Source of the DNA: Candidatus Cloacimonadales bacterium
GTDB lineage: Bacteria > Cloacimonadota > Cloacimonadia > Cloacimonadales > JAFGVF01
Length of the DNA: 64,000 bases
NCBI GenBank assembly: GCA_963677495.2
Contig: CAXXOU010000001.1
Location: forward strand, 768,001-832,000
Direction: 5' to 3'
This document shows positions 3,833 through 17,548 of the stretch, piece by piece. The translations under genes were made by a program, and so were the position numbers. The notes beneath the pieces are model-generated. The model was given only the letters and a program-made list of their open reading frames with translations. It was not told the origin of the DNA and did no database searches. How positions within the stretch are numbered: the stretch's first letter is position 1; every line of letters begins with the position of its first letter.

Positions 3833-5818
3833 ATGATTAAAAAGAATTGGCTTTCTATAATTATATTGATTCTTGCTCTAGTTATCGCTGCTTGTGCAGA
3901 CGATGATAATAATGTTACAGAGCCGGTACAAGGAGATTTCTCGCAACTCGATGTTGCTGATGATTTCTCATTCAATACGATTAATAATGTTGAGTTTGAC
4001 ATTATGGTAAATCAGGGATTACCAAACATTGTCATCGAAATTTATAATGATTTCCCTGCTGACGGTGGCAAAGTTCTTTACAGAGGTGCTACTGATGCTG
4101 AAGGAATTTTTAGTGCAATCGTGCCACTTCCAAACTATCTTGATAAAGTTGTTGTTTCAGGCTTCATGTCAGAAACAGAAGTTGCAATTATCAATAGTAA
4201 AGTTGAGCTTACTTTAGGAACTACTGAAAGAACAACTCCAATTGGTAAGGCAGTACAACCACCTAAGACAGAAATGGCTTATGTTTTACCATACGATGCT
4301 GATGGAACTCCTATCGGTATGACAAGAGACACAATCCCTGCTGGTTTTATGGCTAAAATTAATGCAACTTTACCAGAAAGACAGTCTCTATTTGATTATC
4401 ATCCTGACTACCTTACACCAAGCGTTGAGCTTAATGCTGTAATTATCAATCAGGAAACTGATATTTGGATTACTTTTGTACATGAAGGTGCAGGATACAA
4501 GAATACACTTGCTTACTACTCATACCCAATCGGTAGTGCTCCTGCTACTTCTGCAGATATCGATACTTTAAAAGTTATCTTCCCTAATGCTTCTTATCAA
4601 GGAAGTGGTGGTGGACTGGTAACCGGTGATAGAGTATATCTCGGACATTTCCAACCAAACACTGTTATCAGTTGGGTACTTATTGCTAATGGTTGGCATA
4701 ATGGTCAAGTTCATGAAAGAACTGATACATGGTATTCAAACTACCATTTCAACCACAATAACCGTCAACAAAACATCCAGGTTTGGGATGAAGAATATGA
4801 CAAACTACTCTTCGCTTTTGAAGATATCGAAGTTCCATTGGGTGATAATGACTATAATGACACTATCTTCTATCTGACAGGTAATCCATTAGGTACAATT
4901 GATACATCTAATGTACCACCAATTGATATTATTGATGATGATGATGGTGACGGTATCTCCAATATCTTTGATGATTTCCCTCAGGATCCTGAGAGAGCAT
5001 TTGAAACAAATGACCATACATTCTCTACACTTGCGTATGAAGATTTATGGCCTGATACTGGTGACTATGACTTCAATGATATGGTTCTAGATTATAACTT
5101 CTTCTACCATACAGCTCCGGGCAACATTATCAGACATATTGTTGCAGAGTTCAAGCTTAAAGCTGTTGGTGCTAGTTTCAATAATGGTTTTGCTGTGCAG
5201 TTGCCATTTAACTCTGATCTGATTGAGAGTATCACAGTTGTTGATGGTTCAGATCCGTTAACATACTCGACTATTATCTCTCATCCGGCATTTAGTCCAT
5301 ATGTTGAAGGTGGTAATGAAGGTGTAATAGTTTTCTTTGAAGATACTAATACTCTTATCAACCAACCGACAGGACATTTCGTTAATACTGAATCAGGTCA
5401 GCCATATATCCAGCCAACTGAGATTGCTCTTGATATCAAGCTTGTAACTCAGGACTTCCTTGCTGAGAACTGGCAGTGGCAACCTCCATACAACCCATTC
5501 ATCTTCGTTAATGGTGTGAGAGGACATGAAGTTCATTTAGCTGATTATCCTCCAACATCCCTTGTAGATAACAGTCTTTTCAATATCGGTGATGATGATA
5601 GTAGTTATACTATCGACAGATTCTATCGTACATCCAACAATCTCCCATGGGCATTAAATATTGCCACTGAGTGGGATCATATGTATGAGAAAACTGATAT
5701 TACTAAAGGTTACCTCAACTTCAAAGCTTGGGCGGAAAGCTACGGAACTGTACATCAGGACTGGTATGAAGACCTACCGGGTAACAGGAATTGGGAAAAG
5801 ATTTACATTAGACCATAG
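3833..5818 (+). CDS. LruC-domain (DUF4842-type) lipoprotein
   Basis: Lipobox VIAAC; FVHEGAGYKN, FED..DNDYND and AYEDLWP..GDYDFND motifs; Ca-binding-like DDDGDGI..DDFP repeat; RBS aggagg. Confidence 0.8.
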   Translation: MIKKNWLSIIILILALVIAACADDDNNVTEPVQGDFSQLDVADDFSFNTINNVEFDIMVNQGLPNIVIEIYNDFPADGGKVLYRGATDAEGIFSAIVPLPNYLDKVVVSGFMSETEVAIINSKVELTLGTTERTTPIGKAVQPPKTEMAYVLPYDADGTPIGMTRDTIPAGFMAKINATLPERQSLFDYHPDYLTPSVELNAVIINQETDIWITFVHEGAGYKNTLAYYSYPIGSAPATSADIDTLKVIFPNASYQGSGGGLVTGDRVYLGHFQPNTVISWVLIANGWHNGQVHERTDTWYSNYHFNHNNRQQNIQVWDEEYDKLLFAFEDIEVPLGDNDYNDTIFYLTGNPLGTIDTSNVPPIDIIDDDDGDGISNIFDDFPQDPERAFETNDHTFSTLAYEDLWPDTGDYDFNDMVLDYNFFYHTAPGNIIRHIVAEFKLKAVGASFNNGFAVQLPFNSDLIESITVVDGSDPLTYSTIISHPAFSPYVEGGNEGVIVFFEDTNTLINQPTGHFVNTESGQPYIQPTEIALDIKLVTQDFLAENWQWQPPYNPFIFVNGVRGHEVHLADYPPTSLVDNSLFNIGDDDSSYTIDRFYRTSNNLPWALNIATEWDHMYEKTDITKGYLNFKAWAESYGTVHQDWYEDLPGNRNWEKIYIRP

Positions 5819-5837
5819 AAAGCAAAAATAAATAATT

Positions 5838-5867
5838 AAGGCTGTTGGATTTCCAGCAGCCTTTTTT
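5838..5867 (+). terminator. Intrinsic terminator
   Basis: aaggctgttgg/ccagcagcctt stem followed by a T run. Confidence 0.75.
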
Positions 5868-5957
5868 CGTTTCTTCCTGGATTTGAAAATAGGTTTTGAC
5901 AAATCAAATACATATAAAAACAATCGTGGAATGTGAGATTTGATTAAGTGAGGATAG

Positions 5958-6632
5958 ATGAAAAAAGCAATAATGCCTTTGATATTGGCTGTACTGATTC
6001 TAGCCGGTTGTGCAGAAAGAATCGAGAAGATAGATTACTCTCTACTTGAAGATGAAATCTTTTTCCAGTTAGACGAGATTTATAAGAATCCCGACTTAGA
6101 GAAGGATATCCCAGATAACAACTTCGATATATTACTTACAAAGAAGAGGACTGATATCTTCTCAAAGAGATATGAAGTACTACAAAAGCAAAAGAACAAT
6201 GTTGGTGTATTCTATGAGGAATATTATTACAACAAGAACTACACTCTGTTTGGTAAGAACTATCCAATGCATAGCTATGAGCTCAAAGCTTTTGTGCGTT
6301 TAAGAGAATCAGAACTGGGATTAGCCTTTTATGATAATGTAATCGAAGCTGAAGTTGTGGAAGAGACATCCAAAGACGAGGAAACCGGATATGCTGAATA
6401 TAGACTCGAAACTGATGATGATTTCGTACTCTATATGACAACAGATGATAACACTGTCTTCAAAGATGATTCTAACTATTTTTATGCCGGACATATATAT
6501 TTTGGCGGTATCCCTGATCCTTTGGGTCTTAAAGTCAAAGTTCATTACGATGAGGAAACTTTTTATGAAGAGGATAATGAGAAGATTATAAAAGCCCTAC
6601 TAATCGAGCAACTTTCCGGTCGTCAAGAGTAA
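5958..6632 (+). CDS. Hypothetical lipoprotein
   Basis: MKK + hydrophobic stretch + ILAGC lipobox; RBS gagga; no recognised domain. Confidence 0.75.
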   Translation: MKKAIMPLILAVLILAGCAERIEKIDYSLLEDEIFFQLDEIYKNPDLEKDIPDNNFDILLTKKRTDIFSKRYEVLQKQKNNVGVFYEEYYYNKNYTLFGKNYPMHSYELKAFVRLRESELGLAFYDNVIEAEVVEETSKDEETGYAEYRLETDDDFVLYMTTDDNTVFKDDSNYFYAGHIYFGGIPDPLGLKVKVHYDEETFYEEDNEKIIKALLIEQLSGRQE

Positions 6633-6681
6633 GGAGTCAGCTAAAGAAGGGCTTTAAACGAAGTAGGATTCCTCCCACCAA

Positions 6682-6860
6682 AGGTTTTTAAATTACGAAT
6701 TACTAATTATGAATTACTAATTTATGCCCCAGCATTTAGCATTCAGCATTTGTAATCTTGCATTCAGCATTCAGCATTCAGCATTTGTAATCTTGCATCT
6801 TGCATCTTTCATTTTGCATTTAACTATAGGCTATAGGCTATAAGCTATTAACTAAAAAAC
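6682..6860. repeat. Tripartite heptamer tandem-repeat block (copy downstream of the 153-aa gene)
   Basis: Successive 7-nt units aattacg/aattact, then agcattc/tcttgca, then ctatagg; same sub-block order as 7448-7675. Confidence 0.9.
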
Positions 6861-6892
6861 CCCCGCTCCTCGCAAGAGGAACGGGGTTTTTG
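6855..6892. terminator. Bidirectional intrinsic terminator
   Basis: aaaaaccccg..tcctc gcaa gagga..cggggttttt hairpin with A and T runs, right after the stop of 6894..7355. Confidence 0.75.
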
Positions 6893-6893
6893 T

Positions 6894-7355
6894 CTAGCTA
6901 CCGTTGTAACTGTTTGTCAGATCATCATACTTACTGATCTTAGGCAGGAAACCATTATCAATGGCATCCTTAACTGTCTGAATCCCGATATCCAAAAGCT
7001 GGATATCAGCAAAGGTAACAGTCTTCAGGTCAATAGTAGGATCATCTTTGTTCACGTTCCACCACATTTTGCTGTAGAGGGCGTAGAATCCAGGATGACG
7101 TTTCTTCTTTCCGAGAACTTCATTTCCATAGCGACGTGTGTAAGTCTTGAGATTGTCAATCCAACCTGAATCGAAACTGTCATAAACAGCTCCCAGGTTT
7201 TCAGCGACAGATCCCATAGTTGCGTTTTGTGTTGTGGCAGCAGGGACAACATAATCTCTACTGAAGCAGATGTAACCTTCATTGAAGGCGGAGTAAACCA
7301 ATTCATCCATCGTTCCTGAGAATGATCTGAATGGCTTCATCATGTTAACTCTCAT
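6894..7355 (-). CDS. Hypothetical protein, paralogue of 13894..14349
   Basis: RBS aaggag; shares SG..D.LV, RDYVVPA.T.QN..MG, P.IDL.T.T and AI.N..LP....YD.L with the 151-aa ORF. Confidence 0.88.
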   Translation of the reverse strand: MRVNMMKPFRSFSGTMDELVYSAFNEGYICFSRDYVVPAATTQNATMGSVAENLGAVYDSFDSGWIDNLKTYTRRYGNEVLGKKKRHPGFYALYSKMWWNVNKDDPTIDLKTVTFADIQLLDIGIQTVKDAIDNGFLPKISKYDDLTNSYNGS

Positions 7356-7447
7356 TGTGATCTCCTTTTCCTACTTCGCATAAAGCTTCGTAGGACACGT
7401 CCTACCAACGGACGACTTTGTTGTTTTTATTTCCCTAACGCGCGATG

Positions 7448-7675
7448 AGGTTTTAAATTATGAATTAGAAATTAGTAATTAGTAATAAGTATTAAGTAAT
7501 AAATGCTTCAGCATTTAGCATTTTGCATCTTGAATCTTGCATTTGTAATTAAGCATTGAGCATTCAGCATTTTTCATTTAGCATCTTGAATCTTGCATTT
7601 GTAATCTTGAATCTTGCATTTGTAATTTTGCATTTAACTATAGGCTTTAGGCTCTTAGCTATAGGCTAAAAAAAC
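7448..7675. repeat. Tripartite heptamer tandem-repeat block (copy upstream of the 153-aa gene)
   Basis: Units aattagt, agcattt/tcttgaa/tcttgca and ctatagg; exact 22-mer attttgcatttaactataggct shared between 6811-6832 and 7625-7646. Confidence 0.9.
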
Positions 7676-7680
7676 TTCCC

Positions 7681-7703
7681 TCTATTATACGTAGCTTACG
7701 GTT
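7681..7703 (-). promoter_or_regulatory. Conserved 23-bp motif aaccgtaagctacgtataataga (copy 1)
   Basis: Exact reverse complement of 13190-13212; contains TATAAT and the palindrome CGTA-N3-TACG; points toward 6894..7355. Confidence 0.75.
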
Positions 7704-7803
7704 CTTGGATTTCTGCTCATATTTAGTGTTTTTTAATGCAAAATACCAGTTTTTATATTGACACCTATACATGATTTCCACTTAGGTTATTGTAAGGTAC
7801 ATT

Positions 7804-9093
7804 ATGAAATTCAAGATCACCGATTATATTAACGACTATGGTAAAGTTATGGATTTTAACAAAAATAAGTCCGTATATATGCACCAATGGTATCCTTTTG
7901 TTGAAGGGTATTCAGAGCAGTTCATCAATTCTATATTAGATGAACAGGAGAGTATACCAAAAGTTTGTTTGGATCCATTCAGTGGTAGTGGGACAACATC
8001 ATTAGAGCTTCAAAGACGAAAGATAAAATGTTACTCCTTTGAGGTTAATCCATTTTTACATCTTTTATCAAAAGTGAAGTTAGAAACAAGATATTGTTAT
8101 ACCGAATTCTCAGAAATTGTGAGTAAGTTAACTGATGAACTATCCATTGCTATTAACTCCGATATTGATTTTCCTCTAAAGTCTAAGAAATTCATTGTGA
8201 ACGATGGAGTATGTAAAAAATGGAATTACAGTAAAGAGGTTTACTCTATATTACTTATAATTAAAAATACAATAGATAAAATAGAAGATAAAAAATATAG
8301 AGAATTGTTAACCATCAGTTTAGCGTCAATTGTACTACCTGTTAGTAACTTATATAGAAACGGTAAATGCTTATCGTATAAAAAGAATTGGGAAGAAAAA
8401 TCATTAACAAGACAAGAAGTCTTGGACATGTTCTTATCAAACATCAAAGAAAAGATATTACCCGATGTATTAAAACTAAATCGATATGATGATACTGAAT
8501 TGTTTTCCAATAGAAGCAATTGCTTTTTTGGGGATGTTAGAATTAAACTTGATGACAAAGTAGATGACAATTCTATTGACCTTGTTATTACATCTCCTCC
8601 ATATCTAAACTCAAGAGATTATACTGATATTTATATGTTAGAATTATGGGTTTTAGGCTTTGTAAACTCATACGAAGATGTTAGAAGTTTACGCAAATCA
8701 ACACTAAGATCTCATGTTCAAGTAAAATGGCAAGACACAATTGCTCCTCAAAACAAAAAATTGCATACAGTATTAAAAGAATTAGAAACTTATAGTAGTA
8801 GTTTTTGGAATAACAGCATACCGGATATGATAAGTGGATATTTTGATGATATCAGGCATTTATTCTCTATATTATATAGAAAATTGAAACCTGATGGAAA
8901 GATATACTTTAATGTAGCAAATTCAGCTTATTATGGTATTGTGATTAAAGTTGATGAGATATGTGCAGAACTTGCAGAACAAGAAGGTTTTACATGTACA
9001 GAGATTAGAACTGCACGCTGGTTGAAGACAAGTGGACAACAAAAAGATGTTGTGGAACGACTTCGTGAGAGTGTTGTTGTACTTACTAAATAA
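7804..9093 (+). CDS. DNA amino-methyltransferase, probably N4-cytosine, alpha-type motif order
   Basis: Motif I LDPFSGSGTT near the N-terminus and catalytic VITSPPY downstream. Confidence 0.9.
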   Translation: MKFKITDYINDYGKVMDFNKNKSVYMHQWYPFVEGYSEQFINSILDEQESIPKVCLDPFSGSGTTSLELQRRKIKCYSFEVNPFLHLLSKVKLETRYCYTEFSEIVSKLTDELSIAINSDIDFPLKSKKFIVNDGVCKKWNYSKEVYSILLIIKNTIDKIEDKKYRELLTISLASIVLPVSNLYRNGKCLSYKKNWEEKSLTRQEVLDMFLSNIKEKILPDVLKLNRYDDTELFSNRSNCFFGDVRIKLDDKVDDNSIDLVITSPPYLNSRDYTDIYMLELWVLGFVNSYEDVRSLRKSTLRSHVQVKWQDTIAPQNKKLHTVLKELETYSSSFWNNSIPDMISGYFDDIRHLFSILYRKLKPDGKIYFNVANSAYYGIVIKVDEICAELAEQEGFTCTEIRTARWLKTSGQQKDVVERLRESVVVLTK

Positions 9094-9095
9094 TA

Positions 9096-10145
9096 TTACT
9101 CATCTACATTAAACATTCTACATCCAGAAAAAAAGTTAGTGTTAATGTGTTCATAATCTTTATTAATGATTAAATCATTTATCTTATTCTCAATTGCCTT
9201 GGATTCATCCTCTTTTTCAATTCTTGCATCGAACACTATCAAATAACCACAGCCATCTTTTTTATCGAGGATTTTTATACCCATTGATAAGTATCTGAAT
9301 ATTTGTTCTAAACCATCCTCTACTTTGTCTATTTTGTATGTATAAACTCCTTTTGTATTAGGGTCCCCACATGATTTTCCCATCCATTTAATTTCTATTA
9401 ATGCAAATCTAGATGAGTCCTCAAGTAAGATATCATACCTTGTTTTATCTATAAGTTCTCCCTCTTTTCCTACTTGCATACAACTCTCACGATGAATGAA
9501 TTCTTTCAAGCTTCTTTGAAATAAATACTCAGGTGCTGACCTGAGAAGATTTTTTATCTTTTTATTGGACTCCTTCTTTTCCCGGGTTGTCTGAAAGAAA
9601 AAAAGAGATATTTCCTTTCTATCTAAAGATTTTTGGTATTCATCAAACAATTGGTCAATCTGATCCATAGAATACCGTTTAGTATAAGAATGATACAAAG
9701 AAGGATTATCAAAAATACTTGTTGACACAATCGAAACACCTTCGTAGTATACATTGAATGAATGAGAAGTTTGATCGTTTCTTTCATGGAAGAGAACATA
9801 GCAATTTGAAGCGTCAGTACTTAAACCTTGTATGTTAGAACATGTGCATTGTAAATTCGTTTGATGAATGATGTTTAATGAATTATCTAAGCTTAGACAA
9901 TTAAAGTGAAAAGACTGCTTTATAATCCTAGCAAACTTGACTTGACTGTTATCTAGAATAAAACCATTTTTCTTTATGCTAGAAAGATTTATAACTAATA
10001 AAAATATCCTTTTATCGTCACGCATCCCATCCAATGGCATCAATATCTGATAAAACAAAAGTTGATAGTCTTCTGCAAGTTCTTTATTCAAATTACATAA
10101 TTTTTTGTCTCGAAGACTTCCGAATAAACTTTTATCTATTTTCAC
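9096..10145 (-). CDS. Putative PD-(D/E)xK nuclease effector
   Basis: C-terminal RYDILL..ALIEIKW plus QIFRY (QxxxY) pattern; overlaps the stop of the upstream gene. Confidence 0.65.
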   Translation of the reverse strand: MKIDKSLFGSLRDKKLCNLNKELAEDYQLLFYQILMPLDGMRDDKRIFLLVINLSSIKKNGFILDNSQVKFARIIKQSFHFNCLSLDNSLNIIHQTNLQCTCSNIQGLSTDASNCYVLFHERNDQTSHSFNVYYEGVSIVSTSIFDNPSLYHSYTKRYSMDQIDQLFDEYQKSLDRKEISLFFFQTTREKKESNKKIKNLLRSAPEYLFQRSLKEFIHRESCMQVGKEGELIDKTRYDILLEDSSRFALIEIKWMGKSCGDPNTKGVYTYKIDKVEDGLEQIFRYLSMGIKILDKKDGCGYLIVFDARIEKEDESKAIENKINDLIINKDYEHINTNFFSGCRMFNVDE

Positions 10146-10798
10146 TCATCCCCCAAAACAATAGTTTCAAAAATATATCCGAAATAACCAATTAAATAGT
10201 CTTTCATGGTAGTTTCACTACCTACATCACTGGGAAACTGATTATCATACTCTTTCTTAAATTCACCCATGAATTTGATTGTAGCATTATGTGGATTCTG
10301 TGTATCTAAGTTCGACACATTTGAAGACAGTTTTTCTTTGAACTCTTCATCCCTATATATAAACCTAAACAATTTAGTATACCCATAAATACTTTGAAGT
10401 GTTACAGACAAATCTATCCACTCAATTATACTTGTTAACAATGGATCTTTGAGTAGTTTCGACTCAACAACTGAAACTCCTTCATGTGTTAGAATTGGTT
10501 TTTCAACATCATCAATATATCCATTTAGAAGCAATCTATCTAAAGCTTCATTGATTAGATTGCATTGAGGGCCCGTTGAATAAGTAACAAATTCATAAAG
10601 TTTAATTAAGTTAACAAACTCTGGATCATCTAGTGATTTACTATAGAAATGTGATAGTATAATCAACTGATACATGGACCAGTTAATATATTTCTTATTA
10701 ATTTCAATCCAACCAAGTTTCTTTGTATAATACAAAAGAATCAATAAATGTAATGCTGATACAGTTTCTTTGCTTTGTGTCTCGTTTTTATTGTTCAT
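10142..10798 (-). CDS. Hypothetical protein, winged-helix-like middle component
   Basis: Coupled to both neighbours; RBS ggag before the ATG at 10798 (ORF track start 10831); Y..GP....I.EALD.L...GYI pattern typical of wHTH proteins. Confidence 0.7.
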   Translation of the reverse strand: MNNKNETQSKETVSALHLLILLYYTKKLGWIEINKKYINWSMYQLIILSHFYSKSLDDPEFVNLIKLYEFVTYSTGPQCNLINEALDRLLLNGYIDDVEKPILTHEGVSVVESKLLKDPLLTSIIEWIDLSVTLQSIYGYTKLFRFIYRDEEFKEKLSSNVSNLDTQNPHNATIKFMGEFKKEYDNQFPSDVGSETTMKDYLIGYFGYIFETIVLGDE

Positions 10799-12863
10799 CA
10801 ATATTCTCCATGAAGGTTTCTCTAGCATCATGTAACGCTTTACTATTTATTTGTGTGATTGATTGACGTCCATAGAACATCATATCAAGTGTCTTTATTC
10901 TGTGTTTAGGTAGTTTCTTTTTTATGTGATTAAGAAAATCACTATTTCCATAATTAAAAGTAACAATCAAACTATTGCTATGTCGCAAGAAATGAATTAG
11001 AGATTCCGCTGCTTGTTGAGAATATGCTATGTCTAAACTAGAATCTGGAGTCTCAAAAATAAACATGGTAGGGTTGACGTAGAATACATCAAGAAAGCTT
11101 AGTCTAAATGACTGTTCCATAAAAAATGATTGGGATTCAGATAATTCATCACTTGAGTTGCGTGGGATTTCATCAATTACTGGAATGTAAGACTCATAAT
11201 TTGGGTTGTAAACACTTTTATCAAATTTCAAATAGCAACTATACGGTAAGAATTTCTCCGCATAAGTTGTAAACAATTTTGATAAATCCTCTGTTAATCT
11301 AATTTTCTTGTCTCTAATATCTTCGTTTAGTTTGTCCAGTTTAGCTTGAGTTTCTTCCTTCTTAGTAATATAGAGGTTTCTTTCTTTCTCGATTTTCTTT
11401 ATTCGCTCAACAATGTAATTGTTATCAGAGATTTCTCCAAATGAACCATCGTTTATCCTAGAATGTTCAAGATTTCTAATTTCAAGGTTTAACTTGAATA
11501 ATCTTGTCTCTATATCCTTTGTCTGGTTATCTAAGGCTTCAAGTTGTTTTTTTGTTTGTTGCTTTTTGTCACGGGTTGCAACAATATTCTGATCTAATTT
11601 TGCTTTATTTTGTATCAGTAATTCAATATTTTTGGGTGCTACTTCATATTGCTTTTGTATTACTGAATCACAATAGAAACAGTTCATCAAATGCTTTTGC
11701 TGAGTAGCCAAGCTTTCATCGATATCTTGCATACAGAAAGGACATAATTTTTTTTCTTCGATATACTTTAAATAGGTGTGGTACCTCGGATCTAATTTAC
11801 TGAATATTTTACGGTCTCGTTCTGACCGATATTTTTGAATTTGAGCTTCTATTTCTCCACATTCAATCATTGTTTTTTCTAACTCAGAAGATAAAATTTT
11901 TCTCTGATTTTCCAATATATTCCTCTTCCCATCAATTTCTTTACTTTTTTCAATATAAGAAAGCTTTTTTTCTCTTAATTCTGAAACATTTGCAGATGAA
12001 TTAGTTCCCGTTTTGTTCATGTCTTCTAATAGTTTTCTAAGTGGTTTTCTATCTTCTGATAGATGTCTTATTCTACTATCAAAATACTTCTTGTCATGAC
12101 TATGTTTCTCAATCTCTATAGAAATATCAGTTAAGAGATATAATGTTAAATATTCTTGAATTGTAAGATCTGCGTTGTTTTTTTCTTCCCAAAAAATAGT
12201 GGATCTAGATTCATCAAAAACGAAAATGTTAATAATGAAGAAAATAAAAGCATCAAAACTAGGTAAATTTGTTAAGTCTTTAACACATTCTTCGTATTTA
12301 TACTGAATTGATTCTCTAAATCTTCTGACATCAAAAGAATCTTTAGAAGTTTTCTCATCATAGCCATTAGTAGAGTTAGTTCCATTGAACTTGTTAAAAA
12401 GTTCGTCATAATCTGCTTGTGGCAGAACTTCTCCATTTTCATTTTGAGAACTATTTTTTTGAATAAGTCTAAATTCAAGGAGCTTATGTTCATATAGACT
12501 TCTTACAACTTCTAGTTGAGAGTCTCCGATTCTAAATGTAACTAACACTTTAGCAGAAGGCTTGATTCCATATGCTTTCATCCTATTTTTGAAATAATCC
12601 CCATGTAAAGCTCTTCGTTTTATAATTCTCTTTTCTTTATAAGTCCTTTCGAATCTAGTATGAGTTCTGTATCCACCAATCAACGCATATTTGAGTATAT
12701 TTATGAAGGTCGTTTTCCCCATGCCATTTCCACCAATGACAAGGTTAATCCCATCAATAAAGTCATAATGAATGTCTTCTTTATAAAGGCTGTAATCAAT
12801 TATTGAAATGCTTTTTAGTGTAGGGAAAATTATTCTGTTATTAAAGACAACATCATTATCCAT
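10788..12863 (-). CDS. SMC/Rad50-like ABC ATPase with coiled coil and zinc hook
   Basis: Walker A GGNGMGKTT; long coiled coils around CPFC and CFYC; degenerate signature LSESQ; Walker B/D-loop FIFETPDSSLD. Confidence 0.88.
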   Translation of the reverse strand: MDNDVVFNNRIIFPTLKSISIIDYSLYKEDIHYDFIDGINLVIGGNGMGKTTFINILKYALIGGYRTHTRFERTYKEKRIIKRRALHGDYFKNRMKAYGIKPSAKVLVTFRIGDSQLEVVRSLYEHKLLEFRLIQKNSSQNENGEVLPQADYDELFNKFNGTNSTNGYDEKTSKDSFDVRRFRESIQYKYEECVKDLTNLPSFDAFIFFIINIFVFDESRSTIFWEEKNNADLTIQEYLTLYLLTDISIEIEKHSHDKKYFDSRIRHLSEDRKPLRKLLEDMNKTGTNSSANVSELREKKLSYIEKSKEIDGKRNILENQRKILSSELEKTMIECGEIEAQIQKYRSERDRKIFSKLDPRYHTYLKYIEEKKLCPFCMQDIDESLATQQKHLMNCFYCDSVIQKQYEVAPKNIELLIQNKAKLDQNIVATRDKKQQTKKQLEALDNQTKDIETRLFKLNLEIRNLEHSRINDGSFGEISDNNYIVERIKKIEKERNLYITKKEETQAKLDKLNEDIRDKKIRLTEDLSKLFTTYAEKFLPYSCYLKFDKSVYNPNYESYIPVIDEIPRNSSDELSESQSFFMEQSFRLSFLDVFYVNPTMFIFETPDSSLDIAYSQQAAESLIHFLRHSNSLIVTFNYGNSDFLNHIKKKLPKHRIKTLDMMFYGRQSITQINSKALHDARETFMENIDEQ

Positions 12864-12968
12864 TATACCCCCTGTATGACATTATAATCAATGATATATG
12901 AAAAATAATTAATAAGTAGATTATGTCAATCTATTTATGTGATTTAATAACTCTTCCCCCACTCACCC

Positions 12969-13060
12969 CACTATCATAATTCCCAACAAACACCCCACAA
13001 ATTTCTGTGAGTCTCTTGAGGGTCACTGGGGCTGGTTGATAAGTGAGTCTCTCGAAATTG
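12969..13060. repeat. Dispersed intergenic element, related to 42396-42498
   Basis: cactatcataat-N28-gagtctcttg-N22-aagtga-N7-gaaattg; the first two spacings are identical in the other copy. Confidence 0.65.
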
Positions 13061-13189
13061 GGTAGTTAGAGATAATTTTTTCATATTTATTATGATAGGG
13101 CATAGAGACCGCATATAATCAATGATTAGATGCATTTGTTATCTTTCAAATCTTTAAAAAATTGTGCTTTTATATACCGATTTATGCAA

Positions 13190-13212
13190 AACCGTAAGCT
13201 ACGTATAATAGA
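13190..13212 (+). promoter_or_regulatory. Conserved 23-bp motif aaccgtaagctacgtataataga (copy 2)
   Basis: Perfect inverted copy of 7681-7703; TATAAT at 13204-13209, directly before the REP array and the 151-aa gene. Confidence 0.75.
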
Positions 13213-13225
13213 AGGACATTTATTT

Positions 13226-13866
13226 TGGGCGACCCCATTAGGGTCGAGATTTGTATTACTCGGTTCCATGGGCTGAAGCCCATGGCTATTATAATGTTGC
13301 CCCTTCAGGGCATGAATACAATATTTGTGTAATTGCTCCATGGGCTAAGACCTTGGCTATTATAAGTTTGCCCCTTCAGGGCATGAATAAGATATTTGTG
13401 TAACTGCTCCATGGGCTAAGACCTTGGCTATTATAATGTTGCCCCTTCAGGGCATGAATACGATATTTGTGTAATTGTACCATGGGCTAAGCCCATGGCT
13501 ATTATAATGTTGCCCCTTCAGGGCATGAATACGATATTTGTGTAATTGTACCATGGGCTGAAGCCCATGGCTATTATAATGTTTCCCCTTCAGGGCATGA
13601 ATACGATATTTGTGTAATTGTTCCATGAGCTGAAGTCCATGGCAATATAAGGTTGTCCCGTTTAGACAAGAATGGGGAATAGATTATAACTATAAAATAA
13701 TTCCATATTAAGAACCCTAAATGGGTTCCATAACAATAGCCATAGGTTTCAACCTATGGAATAGAGATACCCCACACCTTAACCCTAAAAGGGTTATATA
13801 ATAATAGCCATAGGTTTCAACCTATGGGACAGGAACGCTCCCCATCCCAACCCTAAAGGGGTTGCC
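13226..13866. repeat. REP/REPIN-like palindromic cluster 1
   Basis: Six tandem 71-72-bp units starting at 13266, 13338, 13409, 13480, 13551 and 13623 (hairpins ccatgggc-tgaa-gcccatgg and gccc-cttca-gggc), then two inverted units (ccataggt-ttca-acctatgg); ends are inverted repeats. Confidence 0.92.
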
Positions 13867-13893
13867 TTTCAAATAAAAATAAAGGAGATCACA

Positions 13894-14349
13894 ATGAAAA
13901 TTAAACTCGCATGTTGGATTAAATCGGTATCAGGTAAACTGGACGATTTAGTGTTTTGTGTTGATAAAAAGACCGGTAATGTGTGGGTACGTGATTATGT
14001 AGTACCTGCAAGAACAGCTCAGAATACCTTAATGGGATTGGTTTCCAAGAATTTGGCTGTTTATAAGCAAAATGTTAGCGCAGGTTATTTCTCTGATTTA
14101 GAGGATTATTCAGATAAATACAACCTAGCGACGCTAGGTCAACCGGGTAGATTGAATAGTGCTTCTACCTTAAACAAGATGATGTATGCGTTGAAGAGAG
14201 CATATCCCGCAATAGATTTAGTTACAATTACCCCTCAATATGTGGTTGATCATAGTTTACCGATTCGTACAATCGCGGAAGCAATTGAAAATAATCTTCT
14301 CCCTCAAGTGCCACGATATGATGAGTTAGTACATCTCATTGTATCATAA
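13894..14349 (+). CDS. Hypothetical protein, paralogue of 6894..7355
   Basis: Same aaaggagatcacaATGa start context; about 30% identity by eye over the full length. Confidence 0.88.
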   Translation: MKIKLACWIKSVSGKLDDLVFCVDKKTGNVWVRDYVVPARTAQNTLMGLVSKNLAVYKQNVSAGYFSDLEDYSDKYNLATLGQPGRLNSASTLNKMMYALKRAYPAIDLVTITPQYVVDHSLPIRTIAEAIENNLLPQVPRYDELVHLIVS

Positions 14350-14377
14350 ATGTACTTGGCTTTCATATACTCCGACA

Positions 14378-14410
14378 AAATGCCCGGTTTGTTCCGGGCA
14401 TTTGTTTTTT
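14378..14410 (+). terminator. Intrinsic terminator of the 151-aa gene
   Basis: aaatgcccgg/ccgggcattt stem followed by gtttttt. Confidence 0.7.
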
Positions 14411-15030
14411 GGGGCGACCCCGTTAGGGTCGGGGATTTATTTTATACGTTTCCATGGGCTGAAGCCACATGGCTATTATAATGTTGTCCCTTTATACAAG
14501 AATTGGGTTGATCTGATTGTATCCATGGGTTGAAGTCAGGGTTATTGTAACGTTGTTCCGGGCATTTGTTTCTTGGGCGACCCCATTAGGGTCGGGGTTT
14601 CGTAAAATTCGTATCCATGGGCTGAAGTCACATGGCTATTATAATGTTGTCCCTTTAGGACAAGAATTGTGTTGATCCGATTGTATCCATGAGTTGAAGT
14701 CAGGGTTATTGTAATGTTGTTCCGGGCATTTGTTTCTTGGGCGACCCCATTAGGGTCGGGGTTTCGTAAAATTCGTATCCATGGGCTGAAGCCACATGGC
14801 TATTATAATGTTGCCACTTTAGGGCAAGAATTGTAGTTGATCTGATTGTATCCATGAGTTGAATCCATGGAAATTATAAGATTGTCCAGTTAGGGCATGA
14901 ACGTGGAATTTGTTGTAATTAAATATATCAATCCGTATAATGAACCCTGAATGGGTTCCATAATAATAGCCATAGGTTTCAACCTATGGAATTGATGCCC
15001 CCAGTCCTTCTACCCTAAAGGGGTAGCCCA
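14391..15030. repeat. REP/REPIN-like palindromic cluster 2, with a 164-bp higher-order triplication
   Basis: gttccgggcatttg recurs at 14391, 14555 and 14719; same hairpin units as cluster 1; inverted unit at about 14943-15030. Confidence 0.92.
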
Positions 15031-15125
15031 TTGTTTCATCTTAGCAAATATTGCAAAATAAAACCATCTTTCTTTGCTTGTAAACAACATTATATTATAT
15101 ACATCTGTAGAAATTTGGAGGAGAT

Positions 15126-15569
15126 ATGTCTACATATACGCAAATATTATATCACATTGTATTTAGCACAAAAGGACGTTATCGAACGTTGGAGCTATCG
15201 AAAAGAGAGGAAATTCTCAAATATGCCTGGGCAGTCTTGAAGAATAACAAATCATATGTTTACCAAATGAACATGATGGATGATCATTTTCATATTCTTT
15301 GTTCGATCCATCCACAGAAAAACCTATCGGATATGGTGAAGCTCATTAAGGCTTCGGTAGGGAATTGGATTAGGGATAACAATGTTTGCCCAAGATTTGC
15401 CGGTTGGCAAAACGGATATGGAGCATTTACAGTTGGGTGGAGTAACCGGGAACATTTAATCAAATATATAAAGGATCAGCAACAGCATCATAAGCGATTT
15501 ACATATGAGGTAGAATATCAGAAATTGTTGGATGATGCAGGGGTTGAATATAATAAAGAATATTTGTAA
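15126..15569 (+). mobile_element. tnpA: IS200/IS605-family Y1 (HUH) transposase, REP-associated (RAYT-like)
   Basis: YHIVFSTK.R, HUH motif DHFHIL, WQNGYGAF, catalytic YI..Q..HH; REP clusters on both sides; no tnpB. Confidence 0.93.
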
Positions 15570-15571
15570 TT

Positions 15572-15990
15572 TGGACGACCCCGTTAGGGTCGGGATTTCG
15601 TATGATCCGTTCCATGGGCTGAAGCCCATGGCTATTATAAGGTTGTCCCTTTAGGACAAGAATGCATTTTGGTTGGATTATGTTCCATGGGTTGAAACCA
15701 CATGGCTATTATAAGGTTGCCCTGTTAGGGCAAGAACACGATTTTTGTTAGATCTGTTTACGTGGGTGATGTTTATGGCTATAATAATGTTGCCTTGTTA
15801 GGGCTGGAAAATTGATCTGATGTTATTATATCGCATTTATTATAAAATAGAACGTTTATAATAAGATTTTCCAGGTAGGAATTCGCATGATCCCCACATC
15901 TTAACCCTGAAGGGGTTATTCTTATAATAGCCATAGGTTTCAACCTATGGAATTGATATCCCAAGACCTCAACCCTAAAGGGGTTGCCCA
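15572..15990. repeat. REP/REPIN-like palindromic cluster 3
   Basis: Starts tggacgaccccgttagggtcg and ends caaccctaaaggggttgccca; three forward units (the last decayed) and one inverted unit. Confidence 0.92.
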
Positions 15991-16048
15991 ATTCATTTAA
16001 ATCGAAAAGAATACCCGGATTGCTCCGGGCATTTCACTATACGACGTT

Positions 16049-16627
16049 CTATTCTATCTCTTCAATTAGCAGGTCAAAGTCATCATCCTTTTCAGGTTGA
16101 TATTCAATTATTGCCTTCAATAAGATAGTTTTCTTAATGTGCTTTGCAAGGATTGGACAATACTTTTCCAGTTTCTTTAGTGCACGTTTTATGGCAGTAT
16201 AGACCATATGATAAGTTTGAATAACAAGCTTATCCATGTTTGGTTCTTGATGAGACCATTTCCTAAGAAAGGCTTCAGTGTTAGCGATTTGATCCATTTC
16301 GAGATCATCGAAACGGGATGTATCATCTAGAGCTTGTTTCTTATACGTCCTTAGCTTTGTGAGTAGGTCAGCATTTTCTATCTGCTCCTCTCTTGCTAAG
16401 TCATAACATCTTGTAACATAATCAGCTTCCGTATCACTTGATACAGAATGGTGGTTGTTATGGGATTGGGAGTGCTCAAGGATAAAGAACAAGCGTTGAA
16501 GCTGGGTAGGTTGATTTGGATGAAGTAGAAGTTCTTCAATATACTTGAAACCATTAGTCTTCTTAATCGGTTTATCTTGTTCTTGCGTTATCCATGCATC
16601 ACGGGTAATCTTCAGGTCGTAAAACAT
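16049..16627 (-). CDS. Hypothetical protein, possible stand-alone DNA-binding/regulatory domain
   Basis: RBS gaggt; GFKYI..LL.HPNQ and VYTAIKRALKKL....P.LAKHI patterns recall C-terminal domains of some large ATPase regulators (from memory, unverified); hairpin at 16010-16034 after the stop. Confidence 0.7.
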   Translation of the reverse strand: MFYDLKITRDAWITQEQDKPIKKTNGFKYIEELLLHPNQPTQLQRLFFILEHSQSHNNHHSVSSDTEADYVTRCYDLAREEQIENADLLTKLRTYKKQALDDTSRFDDLEMDQIANTEAFLRKWSHQEPNMDKLVIQTYHMVYTAIKRALKKLEKYCPILAKHIKKTILLKAIIEYQPEKDDDFDLLIEEIE

Positions 16628-16991
16628 TTTTACCTCTTTGACTTAAACTTAGTTTAGTTAAGAGTCTTGGTAAACGGTATTGCAATCGTTTGCCTACACA
16701 GATTGCGATATTAACTCTATTCCCCGGTGTTGGGGAGACCTTACACGTAAAGATGTCCTAAAGGTTAGGACTTAAGGTCAGAGCAAGAATTCATAAAACC
16801 TCCAATGGATATGTTTAATATTATGCAATTTTAATTCCTTCGTAGATATATAATTATGGTGTTATTACGTGAATTGAGTCGGGTGCTGATTATAAGCAGG
16901 ATTATAGGTGACAAAAAAGATAGTTAACAGCTTGCAATAGTTGCTTATAACAAATATATTTTGTATACTTTGTTTACAATTGTATTGATTC

Positions 16992-17548
16992 TACCTTTAG
17001 AATGGTCACAGACCTTCTAAATGGTACTCTTGTAAAACAATTCCACCTTGTTCGAAGTGCGCCATTCGGAAGGTCTGTGACCATTCCGAAGGTACAGATT
17101 TCCAAACACTCACAAGACCGACCAGGGGGTGATTGGGTTACATACGTAAAACGGTCTCTGGACCGTTCGAATCTCGTCCGAGACTGACGAGTTATATAAA
17201 TACAAGAAATTAACCACGAAAAGCACAGAATATACGAAAATTGCTTTGAAAGCTATGTGCAAGTGGAGACACTCGCACTACGAGGGGCTCAACAATTTGA
17301 GCCCTAGGATGTGTCCAAATGGATAGTTTAGTCTGCAAACAATTTCTAGAGTTTGATTGTCATGAAACGAGGGTTCAAGATTTTGAACCCCTACTATATA
17401 GCTTTGCAAGCTATGTGCAAGTGGGGACACTCGCACTACGAGGGGTCTTTTTAGGAAGTCCGTTCTCCCGTTGGTCGTGACAAACTCCCTAAAAAGAGGT
17501 AGCTCAGCAGTCCCGGCTGAGGATAACGTCCCGGAGAGACGTTTTACG
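16992..17548. repeat. Mosaic of multiple distinct REP-like hairpins
   Basis: 33-bp inverted repeat 16992-17024/17062-17094; 45-bp direct repeat 17243-17287/17401-17445; inverted pairs 17284-17305/17370-17394 and 17145-17167/17525-17548. Confidence 0.85.

Follow-up and report, generated by a model that had tools for sequence, protein, structure and literature searches.

Why should two small, distantly related proteins have the same stretch of DNA in front of their genes, with heptamer arrays in between in one case and palindromic hairpin units in the other? The question is raised by a locus of a Candidatus Cloacimonadales bacterium (assembly GCA_963677495.2, contig CAXXOU010000001.1, positions 768,001 to 832,000 of the forward strand; these 64,000 nucleotides (nt) are called the window, and positions without a prefix refer to it). 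Genes A and B encode proteins of about 150 amino acids (aa) that share 32% identity, close to the 30% estimated in an original prediction made from the letters of the sequence. Each gene lies downstream of, and on the same strand as, a copy of the 23-mer AACCGTAAGCTACGTATAATAGA, located at 7681-7703 on the minus strand and at 13190-13212 on the plus strand; a scan of the window allowing up to three mismatches returns these 2 matches against 0.00 expected from 100 shuffles. In addition, the 13 nt directly 5' of the ATG, AAAGGAGATCACA, are identical in the two genes. The 23-mer, this shared start context, the heptamer arrays, the 71-base-pair (bp) repetitive extragenic palindromic (REP) units and an IS200-like gene all lie where that prediction had placed them. 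It had read them as a cassette system wired as motif, repeat block, gene and repeat block. The region is instead probably one copy of a frame, F2-F1b-slot-F1a, that recurs in an uncultured Cloacimonadales genus and in which the 23-mer serves as a promoter or operator and the repeats are later filler. The frame would run from F2 (16049-16627) through F1b (gene B) and a variable slot to F1a (gene A), where F1a and F1b would be old paralogues of a Cloacimonadota-specific family of about 150 aa with no matched fold.

Paired paralogues around a variable defence slot

Genes A and B point outward, away from the slot between them, whose cargo here appears to comprise a DNA methyltransferase and a Lamassu-like three-gene system (Table 1). 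When the 15 open reading frames (ORFs) of this locus are compared with the 10 of the syntenic locus in the sister species (genome G001), only A, B and F2 are found in common, and the sister slot carries PDC-S06-like and restriction endonuclease-like (REase_II-like) ORFs instead. The flanks are thus conserved around content that differs between the two species and is rich in defence genes, as in a defence hot spot. Homology with the sister species stops no more than 9 nt from the motif on the A side (7677-7712 aligned); on the B side it continues to a point 234 nt upstream of the motif (12956-13212). No integrase is present among the 10 scanned ORFs of 3833-16627, attC-type sites not having been searched with a model.

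This genome has five divergent F1 pairs, A/B among them, with partners 4.5-8 kb apart. The other slots hold LmuA/LmuC/LmuB genes, a C5 methyltransferase with a GHKL ATPase, unnamed ORFs with a PIN protein and, in one case, secreted proteins. All seven pairs (five in this genome and two in the sister species) combine one type-I with one non-type-I paralogue. Moreover, four of the five pairs here and both sister pairs have an upstream block that is common to the two partners and specific to the pair (23-92 nt, 89-100% identity); of 226 non-partner pairs, 28 share any block. These blocks face each gene and so form an inverted repeat around the slot, the 23-mer of the window being one such block. 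Because partners share a block, they may be co-expressed. The gathering of defence genes between outward promoters could reflect neutral tolerance of insertions or recombination at the inverted blocks.

Judged by eye, the cargo starts back to back with the framing elements, the methyltransferase ATG lying 100 nt from motif A and the start of the LmuB-like operon 326 nt from motif B. Since these starts are so near the motifs (7704-7803 and 12864-13187), a motif-bound factor could also affect the cargo. At the pair that frames the Lamassu genes in this genome (G000), IS21 IstB-like and IS110-family transposase genes stand between F2 and its F1 partner (L064:5895-8013; G000 C4:1495894-1498012), and the IS110-like ORF recurs at C4:1492880 (by eye). 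Contigs from four DNA runs of one sample, placed on 6000-17000, break at the repeats; the sides of the joints reach 21-32 letters inside repeats and are uninformative on excision.

A promoter-like element upstream of four F1 genes

Alignment of all copies extends the 23-mer to a conserved element of 28-29 nt, A[A/G]AACCGTAAGCTACGTATA[A/G]TAGA[G/A]GG; the two identical copies of the original prediction are real, and the unit to which they belong is longer than it had proposed. This genome contains four copies of the 23-mer, three exact and one with one mismatch, all upstream of F1 genes and on the gene strand (A, B and two further F1 loci, L003 and L004), and a reversed-pattern control yields 0 matches. 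The other 18 of the 22 full-length F1 paralogues lack it, the best of them matching 17 of 28 positions within 700 nt upstream. In the sister species, four copies stand at orthologous F1 loci with 0, 2, 2 and 3 mismatches. With up to three mismatches allowed, the 23-mer is confined among 41 related genomes to G000 and G001 and is found in none of the other 39. A degenerate pattern returns four stretches from the genomes of 185,579 species, all in one Candidatus Cloacimonadales record, and the pattern has 0 matches in Joint Genome Institute (JGI) metagenome contigs.

Across the eight copies of the two species, the 11-nt core CGTAAGCTACG and TAGA are invariant, and the orientation toward the F1 gene is always the same. 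Between the species, the motif differs at 0 of 29 positions for A, 3 of 23 for B and 2 of 23 for L004, at synonymous differences of 0.31, 0.65 and 0.62, respectively. So few changes at a synonymous divergence of 0.31-0.65 point to purifying selection on the 23-mer. Genes that carry the motif are spread over four separate clades of the F1 tree, and within the type-I clade it occurs only in the A lineage; this scatter indicates that the history of the element, whether retained or copied, has been independent of that of the coding sequences.

The geometry is informative as well. The distance from motif to ATG is 66, 273, 322 and 682 nt in this genome versus 36, 114, 309 and about 1055 nt in the sister species. 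The spacing is shortest where repeats are few or missing. At L003 the element ends 66 nt from the ATG, with only two to three heptamers in the interval; at the sister orthologue of the L004 gene it ends 36 nt from the ATG, with none. A spacing of 36-66 nt fits a promoter with a short leader. The 23-mer includes TATAAT, a perfect -10 hexamer, without a -35 consensus, and the hexamer 17 nt upstream of the -10 is AAATCC or AAATCT in three of the four copies (by eye). The promoter would accordingly consist of a CGTAAGCTACG box, quasi-palindromic in form (CGTA-AGC-TACG), that abuts the TATAAT -10, with no -35 and a start region AGAGGG. Related elements of the form TATA[AG]T..TAGAGG are also associated with the family: 10 of 42 genome-wide matches lie at most 330 nt upstream of F1 genes, the remainder being scattered at 839 nt or more from any F1 gene. 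Several of the related F1 elements carry boxes next to the -10 that form direct repeats with a spacing of 20-21 nt (TTTTCAC, TTTTGTGAG, TATTCCT). Collectively, from these features we infer that the 23-mer is the core of a 28-29-bp activator-dependent promoter/operator common to four F1 genes. The inverted repeat at the slot, together with the two other F1 genes, would make these four genes one co-regulated set, and the blocks that lack a -35 would be promoters needing an activator.

Several observations weigh against a promoter. A sigma-70 consensus scan (-10 and -35 hexamers at 16-18 nt spacing, at least 9 of 12 matches) returns 55 sites, and the 23-mer lies outside all of them. The TATAAT part is less well kept in the sister species (AATATT, AAGAAT, TATAGT) than the CGTAAGCTACG box, so that the element is possibly not a -10 and could be mainly a protein-binding or recombination site. 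Gene B, moreover, lies its 682 nt from the motif behind terminator-like hairpins, the first at 13230-13246. The promoter reading itself is drawn from sequence and geometry.

An earlier idea, that the element is a promoter of a phage-type single-subunit RNA polymerase, was dropped when the related and more variable promoter types turned up. An Rfam scan of the four motif loci returns nothing beyond a match to the REP unit and chance microRNA rows. At L004, the intact motif (L004:1501-1523), 273 nt before the ATG, is accompanied by a degenerate proximal copy (L004:1750-1775) at the position that holds the single copy of the sister species, an arrangement that looks like promoter duplication or displacement. 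A further dispersed element, built on a palindrome of two DnaA-box-like 9-mers (TTATCCACA N3 TGTGGATAA), has 20 copies in the genome, three of which lie 239-306 nt upstream of F1 genes (G000 C2:34352, C3:25015 and C4:693264; within L015, L016 and L012).

F2 as candidate reader of the element

The F2 orthologue in the sister species shares 72% identity. This genome holds seven F2 copies, all beside or near F1 loci and on the side of the non-type-I partner. Among the 41 relatives, F2 is present in 27, the same genomes as F1 except one, and 15 of 30 F2 loci have an F1 gene within 1.5 kb, usually with F1 followed by F2 on one strand. The AlphaFold2 (AF2) model of F2, with a predicted local distance difference test (pLDDT) score of 77, contains a coiled-coil hairpin inserted between the two halves of a domain. 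For residues 3-60 plus 129-190, the best structural matches are all OmpR/PhoB/ToxR/CadC DNA-binding domains; for example, ToxR (8b4e_A) aligns with Z 8.4 and a root-mean-square deviation of 3.2 over 94 of 107 residues, and about 30 further rows belong to the same family. An unbiased structure search returns BaeR (Z 8.0), ToxR (7.9) and CadC (7.1), and Foldseek alone gives no match at E<=0.001. The model matches lend moderate support to an OmpR/ToxR-like winged-helix fold, as a fold assignment rather than family membership, and F2 is probably a ToxR/OmpR-type winged-helix DNA-binding protein. It is without a receiver domain, and no membrane segment is seen. F2, which stays beside F1 in seven or more families of the order, is the most economical candidate for the activator, and the neighbouring F2, as a candidate DNA-binding protein, would be the best candidate reader of the 23-mer.

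Some points tell against this role. A fold Z of about 8 is middling and does not stand above unrelated coiled-coil rows (Z 7.0-7.6) obtained for another part of the model, and Pfam Trans_reg_C is unmatched up to E 1 in 15 F2 members. The genomes compared are kin and hence non-independent, so the co-occurrence counts of F1 and F2 overstate the support.

Taken to its full extent, the proposal would make F2-F1b-[slot]-F1a a landing pad that is dedicated to defence genes and regulates itself. Each F2 paralogue would read its own pair-specific boxes and thereby set the outward expression of F1 and possibly the cargo promoters, the two F1 types would act together, and the 23-mer would be the operator of a private four-gene regulon. 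This fuller version is conceivable and rather doubtful.

The F1 family

A profile built from the first four copies yields 25 matches in this 3.41-Mb genome, comprising 3 fragments and the 22 full-length copies, one of which carries an in-frame stop (TAA). The family is absent from Pfam, NCBIfam, PHROGs and PADLOC, in line with the original prediction, which had called it unknown and had seen two of its members. The likeness to DUF6266 proteins that it suggested is not borne out: four paralogues match no Pfam family up to E 10, and 31 relatives match none, DUF6266 included, up to E 0.01. Among 1.84 billion representative proteins, the profile finds 357 at E<=0.001, nearly all of 140-160 aa; Candidatus Cloacimonadota is the source of the few named members and of the nearest ESM Atlas clusters, all of which are unnamed. 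F1 is present in 28 of the 41 related genomes, several of them with 9-23 matches. The AF2 model (pLDDT 84.8) has no Foldseek match against PDB at E<=0.001, and a wide VIA-align search reaches a best Z of only 4.1, to small ribbon-helix-helix and TraM rows.

Gene A falls within the type-I clade with support of 100/100. Compared with the sister orthologues, gene A shows 91% protein identity with a ratio of nonsynonymous to synonymous change (dN/dS) of 0.10, gene B 74% with 0.11, and the L004 gene has a ratio of 0.04. Values of 0.04-0.11 indicate that the F1 genes are real and constrained. The original prediction had taken the non-coding anchors to be under stronger selection than the protein. 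The 23-mer does behave as selected; the low identity between A and B, at dN/dS 0.10 and 0.11, nevertheless appears to reflect old divergence, not relaxed selection.

None of 24 F1 loci from other genomes has a conserved neighbour with a Pfam name. In three other genera, an unnamed ORF of about 225 aa lies directly 5' of F1 on the same strand (L041:808-1485, L044:720-1391 and L048:1946-2623); these three ORFs share 54-80% identity with one another and have no Pfam match. Upstream of the L004 locus, a 95-aa ORF (L004:243-530) resembles, by eye, an RRM-type RNA-binding protein.

Table 1. Features of the frame and its surroundings, ordered along the window.
Feature	Position	Strand	Basis
Heptamer satellite module after gene A	6691..6848	-	Tandem Repeats Finder (TRF) rows (6691-6806) and sequence; beyond terminator; absent at orthologous place in sister species
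Gene A intrinsic terminator	6861..6886	-	11-pair stem (8 G-C), then T run
F1a (gene A), type-I paralogue of the ~150-aa Cloacimonadota family	6894..7355	-	ORF of 153 aa; family profile E 2.2e-72
Gene A proximal leader, hairpins and Shine-Dalgarno context AAAGGAGATCACA	7356..7460	-	Inside 554-nt blastn alignment with sister species, 88.8%
Heptamer satellite module in gene A leader, motif to proximal leader	7463..7672	-	TRF period 7/21/56 at 7463-7635, plus AGCCTAT units
Promoter/operator-like element, gene A	7678..7705	-	23-mer with conserved flanks; CGTAAGCTACG box, TATAAT, AGAGGG; identical over 29 nt in sister species
Variable slot	7713..12955		No nucleotide or protein match to syntenic sister slot; Pfam and PADLOC
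Type II DNA methyltransferase in slot	7804-9093	+	Pfam/PADLOC (MTase_II)
349-aa protein, slot operon	9096-10145	-	No LmuA or LmuC model matched
229-aa protein, slot operon	10142-10831	-	No LmuA or LmuC model matched
LmuB-like SMC/ABC ATPase, 691 aa, slot operon	10788-12863	-	LmuB E 8e-21
Promoter/operator-like element, gene B	13188..13215	+	Inverted copy of 7678-7705; sister copy has 3 mismatches in 23
REP/BIME-like hairpin cluster R1, motif to gene B	13216..13880	+	71 bp x5.6 at 13263-13659; 68 bp x2.2 at 13713-13863
F1b (gene B), non-type-I paralogue	13894..14349	+	ORF of 151 aa; family profile E 5.6e-76; tree
Gene B intrinsic terminator	14378..14403	+	10-pair stem, then T run
REP cluster R2	14389..15030	+	Includes 164-bp x2.9 tandem array at 14389-14863
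IS200-like Y1 (HUH) transposase within REP cluster	15126..15569	+	Pfam Y1_Tnp E 3.3e-23
REP cluster R3	15570..15996	+	Sequence and alignment
F2 terminator	16010-16033	-	Intrinsic terminator scan
F2, 192 aa, predicted ToxR/OmpR-like winged helix split by coiled-coil insert	16049..16627	-	ORF; fold matches

Heptamer arrays

The repeats would represent two kinds of expanding non-coding sequence that have settled in permissive untranslated flanks, whether as selfish or as neutral elements. One of these would be a heptamer satellite that shares the orientation of F1 genes and has expanded greatly in this species. On the gene strand, the module after gene A runs (ATAGCCT)n, then (AATGCAA-type)n, then (AATTAGT-type)n, and the module in the gene A leader has the identical three-part order. 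The AGCCTAT part stands directly 3' of the promoter-like element at several F1 genes. The sister A locus keeps the motif and about 100 nt of proximal leader and lacks the downstream heptamer module, and the middle part of its leader differs, consisting of a shorter degenerate heptamer run and GC-rich repeats.

Sequences within 1.5 kb of an F1 gene make up 2.2% of the genome and contain 14 of its 33 period-7 clusters. Under a stricter definition of an array, they contain 16 of 32, all 16 on the F1 strand (7 upstream and 9 downstream), and the other 16 stand beside unrelated genes and insertion sequence (IS) elements. Such arrays are found near F1 at 1 of 37 F1-bearing loci from other genomes, and AATGCAA x4 has 20 matches in this genome versus 2, 2 and 1 in three congeners. 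We conclude that the heptamers are a lineage-specific satellite that has spread preferentially into the flanks of F1 genes, keeping one orientation there, perhaps as these flanks recombined with each other. The non-random placement and common orientation count against filler of a purely neutral kind, which does not predict them. TRF also reports, in the same genome, 365 period-11 and 78 period-22 arrays.

REP clusters and the Y1 transposase

The second kind would be hairpin clusters, resembling REP sequences and bacterial interspersed mosaic elements (BIMEs), that travel with the IS200-like Y1 transposase. This enzyme covers positions 2-121 of the 121 of Y1_Tnp, with HFH and Y..Q visible by eye, as a Y1 HUH transposase should. 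In NCBIfam it scores 66.3 bits against IS200/IS605 (NF033573), above the cut-off of 55, and 30.6 bits against REP_Tyr_transpos (NF047646), below the cut-off of 80. Clusters R2 and R3 flank the gene on both sides (14389-15030 and 15570-15996), and a second paralogue at C2:97519-97959 likewise sits between matches of the same hairpin types. The genome has five transposase paralogues at 49-100% identity and two distant ones; it does not contain several near-identical copies of a defined IS200/IS605 element (closest paralogue 67%, others 27-54%). The hairpin types are rare, with 4, 13 and 16 matches genome-wide, and 9 of the 16 matches of the H4 hairpin fall within 1.5 kb of an F1 gene. The transposase thus behaves like a REP-associated tyrosine transposase (RAYT) with its REP cluster, without being filed as a member. 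At the sister B locus, REPs are present between motif and gene B, which are about 1055 nt apart there, and the transposase gene is absent.

The R1 hairpins appear among the terminator-like sites of the scan. One 71-bp unit, with two hairpins (13266-13312), scores 37.1 bits on the Rfam family Acido-Lenti-1 (RF01687), whose gathering score is 37; for two units next to it the values are 29 and 26.7. The similarity looks like one of shape, the two hairpins of a REP unit being shared. The Acido-Lenti-1 "sRNA" family may itself describe REP-like elements in part. The 164-bp unit of R2 starts within the gene B terminator, in its 3' arm and T run, and half-terminator copies are consequently repeated three times.

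Given the strong terminators after A, B and F2, the downstream repeat blocks lie outside the mRNAs. Together with the motif genes that have no blocks and the differences between the sister species, this argues that the blocks are not parts of a conserved design. The wiring that the original prediction ascribed to the family does not extend to the 18 paralogues without the 23-mer, and repeat blocks make poor cassette boundaries when L003 and the sister L004 orthologue are nearly or fully devoid of them. Family members lacking the 23-mer or the blocks, which that prediction had itself named as evidence against it, do exist.

Alternative explanations

A cassette system, with repeat blocks as exchangeable boundaries or processed leader RNAs serviced by the HUH enzyme and with the 23-mer and ribosome-binding site as fixed anchors, would account for a motif-R1-gene-R2-tnpA-R3 layout that is real, for REPs between motif and gene B in both species, and for the enrichment of both repeat classes near F1 (heptamers 14/33 and H4 hairpin 9/16 within 1.5 kb). 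It is nonetheless extremely improbable. The motif is absent from 18 of 22 paralogues, some motif-bearing genes have no blocks, the blocks differ between sister species with the transposase missing in one, and the downstream blocks lie beyond terminators. Heptamer arrays also lack the hairpin structure that a Y1 enzyme would need and are almost confined to one species, and none of the 10 ORFs scanned in 3833-16627 is an integrase. The same arrays could be functional in their own right, as binding sites (iteron-like or heptad operators) or as a transcribed leader element, with F1 or F2 perhaps as the reader. Such a function would explain an enrichment of about 20-fold near F1, the F1-strand orientation of 16 of 16 arrays, the fixed order of three types in both gene A modules and the position of AGCCTAT directly after the promoter-like element. 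It is unlikely all the same, since arrays are nearly absent at the F1 genes of other genomes, sister included (1/37 loci), 9 of the 16 F1-near arrays are downstream of the gene, with that of gene A beyond its terminator, and the other 16 accompany unrelated genes and IS elements. Neither length nor sequence is kept between orthologous leaders.

Rather than regulating genes, the pair-specific inverted repeats might be the ends or recombination sites of an exchangeable slot, their identity being maintained by recombination. Inverted copies do bracket the slot in four of five pairs here and in both sister pairs, the A-side homology stops within 9 nt of the 23-mer, and the cargo is completely different between species; identical A and B copies here beside a sister B copy with 3 mismatches would further fit local gene conversion between inverted copies. 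What makes this reading quite unlikely is that single F1 genes, with neither partner nor slot, have the motif by itself at a distance of 36-66 nt from the ATG, and that the B-side homology extends 234 nt past the motif into the slot side. Moreover, the blocks vary from pair to pair, so one recombinase could not read all of them, the slot of the window contains no recombinase gene, and the blocks of other pairs are promoter-like, with direct-repeat boxes abutting a TATAAT-like hexamer. A functionless 23-mer, identical only through recent copying among F1 loci by gene conversion or flank duplication, is very improbable. The spread over four tree clades, with the A lineage alone within type I, does imply copying between loci or repeated loss, and the L004 gene has both an intact distal and a degenerate proximal copy. 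However, the same four orthologous loci carry the motif in the sister species at 31-65% synonymous difference, with 0-3 changes per 23 nt and an invariant 11-nt core, and its orientation to the gene is fixed at all eight places.

Significance and comparison with known systems

In the usual description, defence islands sit between housekeeping genes that are unrelated. In the present case, a recurring module does the framing; it is made of two unstudied protein families and comes with matched promoter-like blocks of its own. If the frame is regulated or recombinogenic, it would reveal the way in which anti-phage genes are organised and exchanged in an uncultured phylum of anaerobic digesters, and the proposal, if true, would give two unannotated families functional handles in the form of a candidate DNA-binding protein and a candidate site. 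The locus also cautions that conspicuous repeat blocks beside such genes can be lineage-specific fillers. The new features are the pair-specific inverted upstream blocks, the pairing of type-I with non-type-I paralogues and the co-occurrence of F2 with F1 across the order.

Activator-dependent promoters of the PhoB/OmpR type have a good -10, no -35 and activator boxes that abut the -10 region. The F1 elements resemble them in having TATAAT or TATAGT, no -35 and conserved boxes directly upstream, and the neighbouring F2 has a predicted OmpR/ToxR-like winged helix. Unlike the PhoB/OmpR regulators, F2 has no receiver domain or visible membrane segment and carries a coiled-coil hairpin in the domain, and the box of the 23-mer is quasi-palindromic instead of consisting of direct repeats.

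The hairpin clusters recall the "REPtrons" of Proteobacteria, which are REP/BIME clusters with a RAYT. As in REPtrons, tandem 68-71-nt hairpins surround a lone Y1 HUH gene without TnpB, in intergenic positions near terminators. The enzyme here, by contrast, passes the IS200/IS605 model and fails REP_Tyr_transpos, has five paralogues instead of a single copy, and accompanies a rare REP type, with 4-16 matches per hairpin type.

Heptamers are the units of another class of repeats, the short tandemly repeated repetitive (STRR) sequences of heterocystous cyanobacteria. Both the term and a use for fingerprinting are on record (PMC5088731). The arrays described here share with them 7-nt tandem units of few sequence types, an intergenic location, restriction to one lineage and no assigned function. 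The phylum and the unit sequences differ, and here the arrays are tied to, and co-oriented with, one gene family in ordered three-part modules.

The closest parallel to the frame is provided by cDHS1 and cDHS2 of Pseudomonas aeruginosa, described in the cited account as core defence hot spots flanked by conserved genes (PMC10250203). As there, a fixed and conserved gene pair brackets a defence-rich slot whose content varies between related genomes. Set against that account, the flanking genes here differ in belonging to a single multicopy family, with a type-I and a non-type-I paralogue in every pair, and in pointing outward with a pair-specific promoter-like block as an inverted repeat; the frame is repeated at least five times in one genome, each time with its own F2 copy. 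Collectively, the locus is a defence hot spot with paralogous framing genes, matched promoter-like blocks and a candidate regulator, accompanied by ordinary REP clusters and a heptamer satellite.

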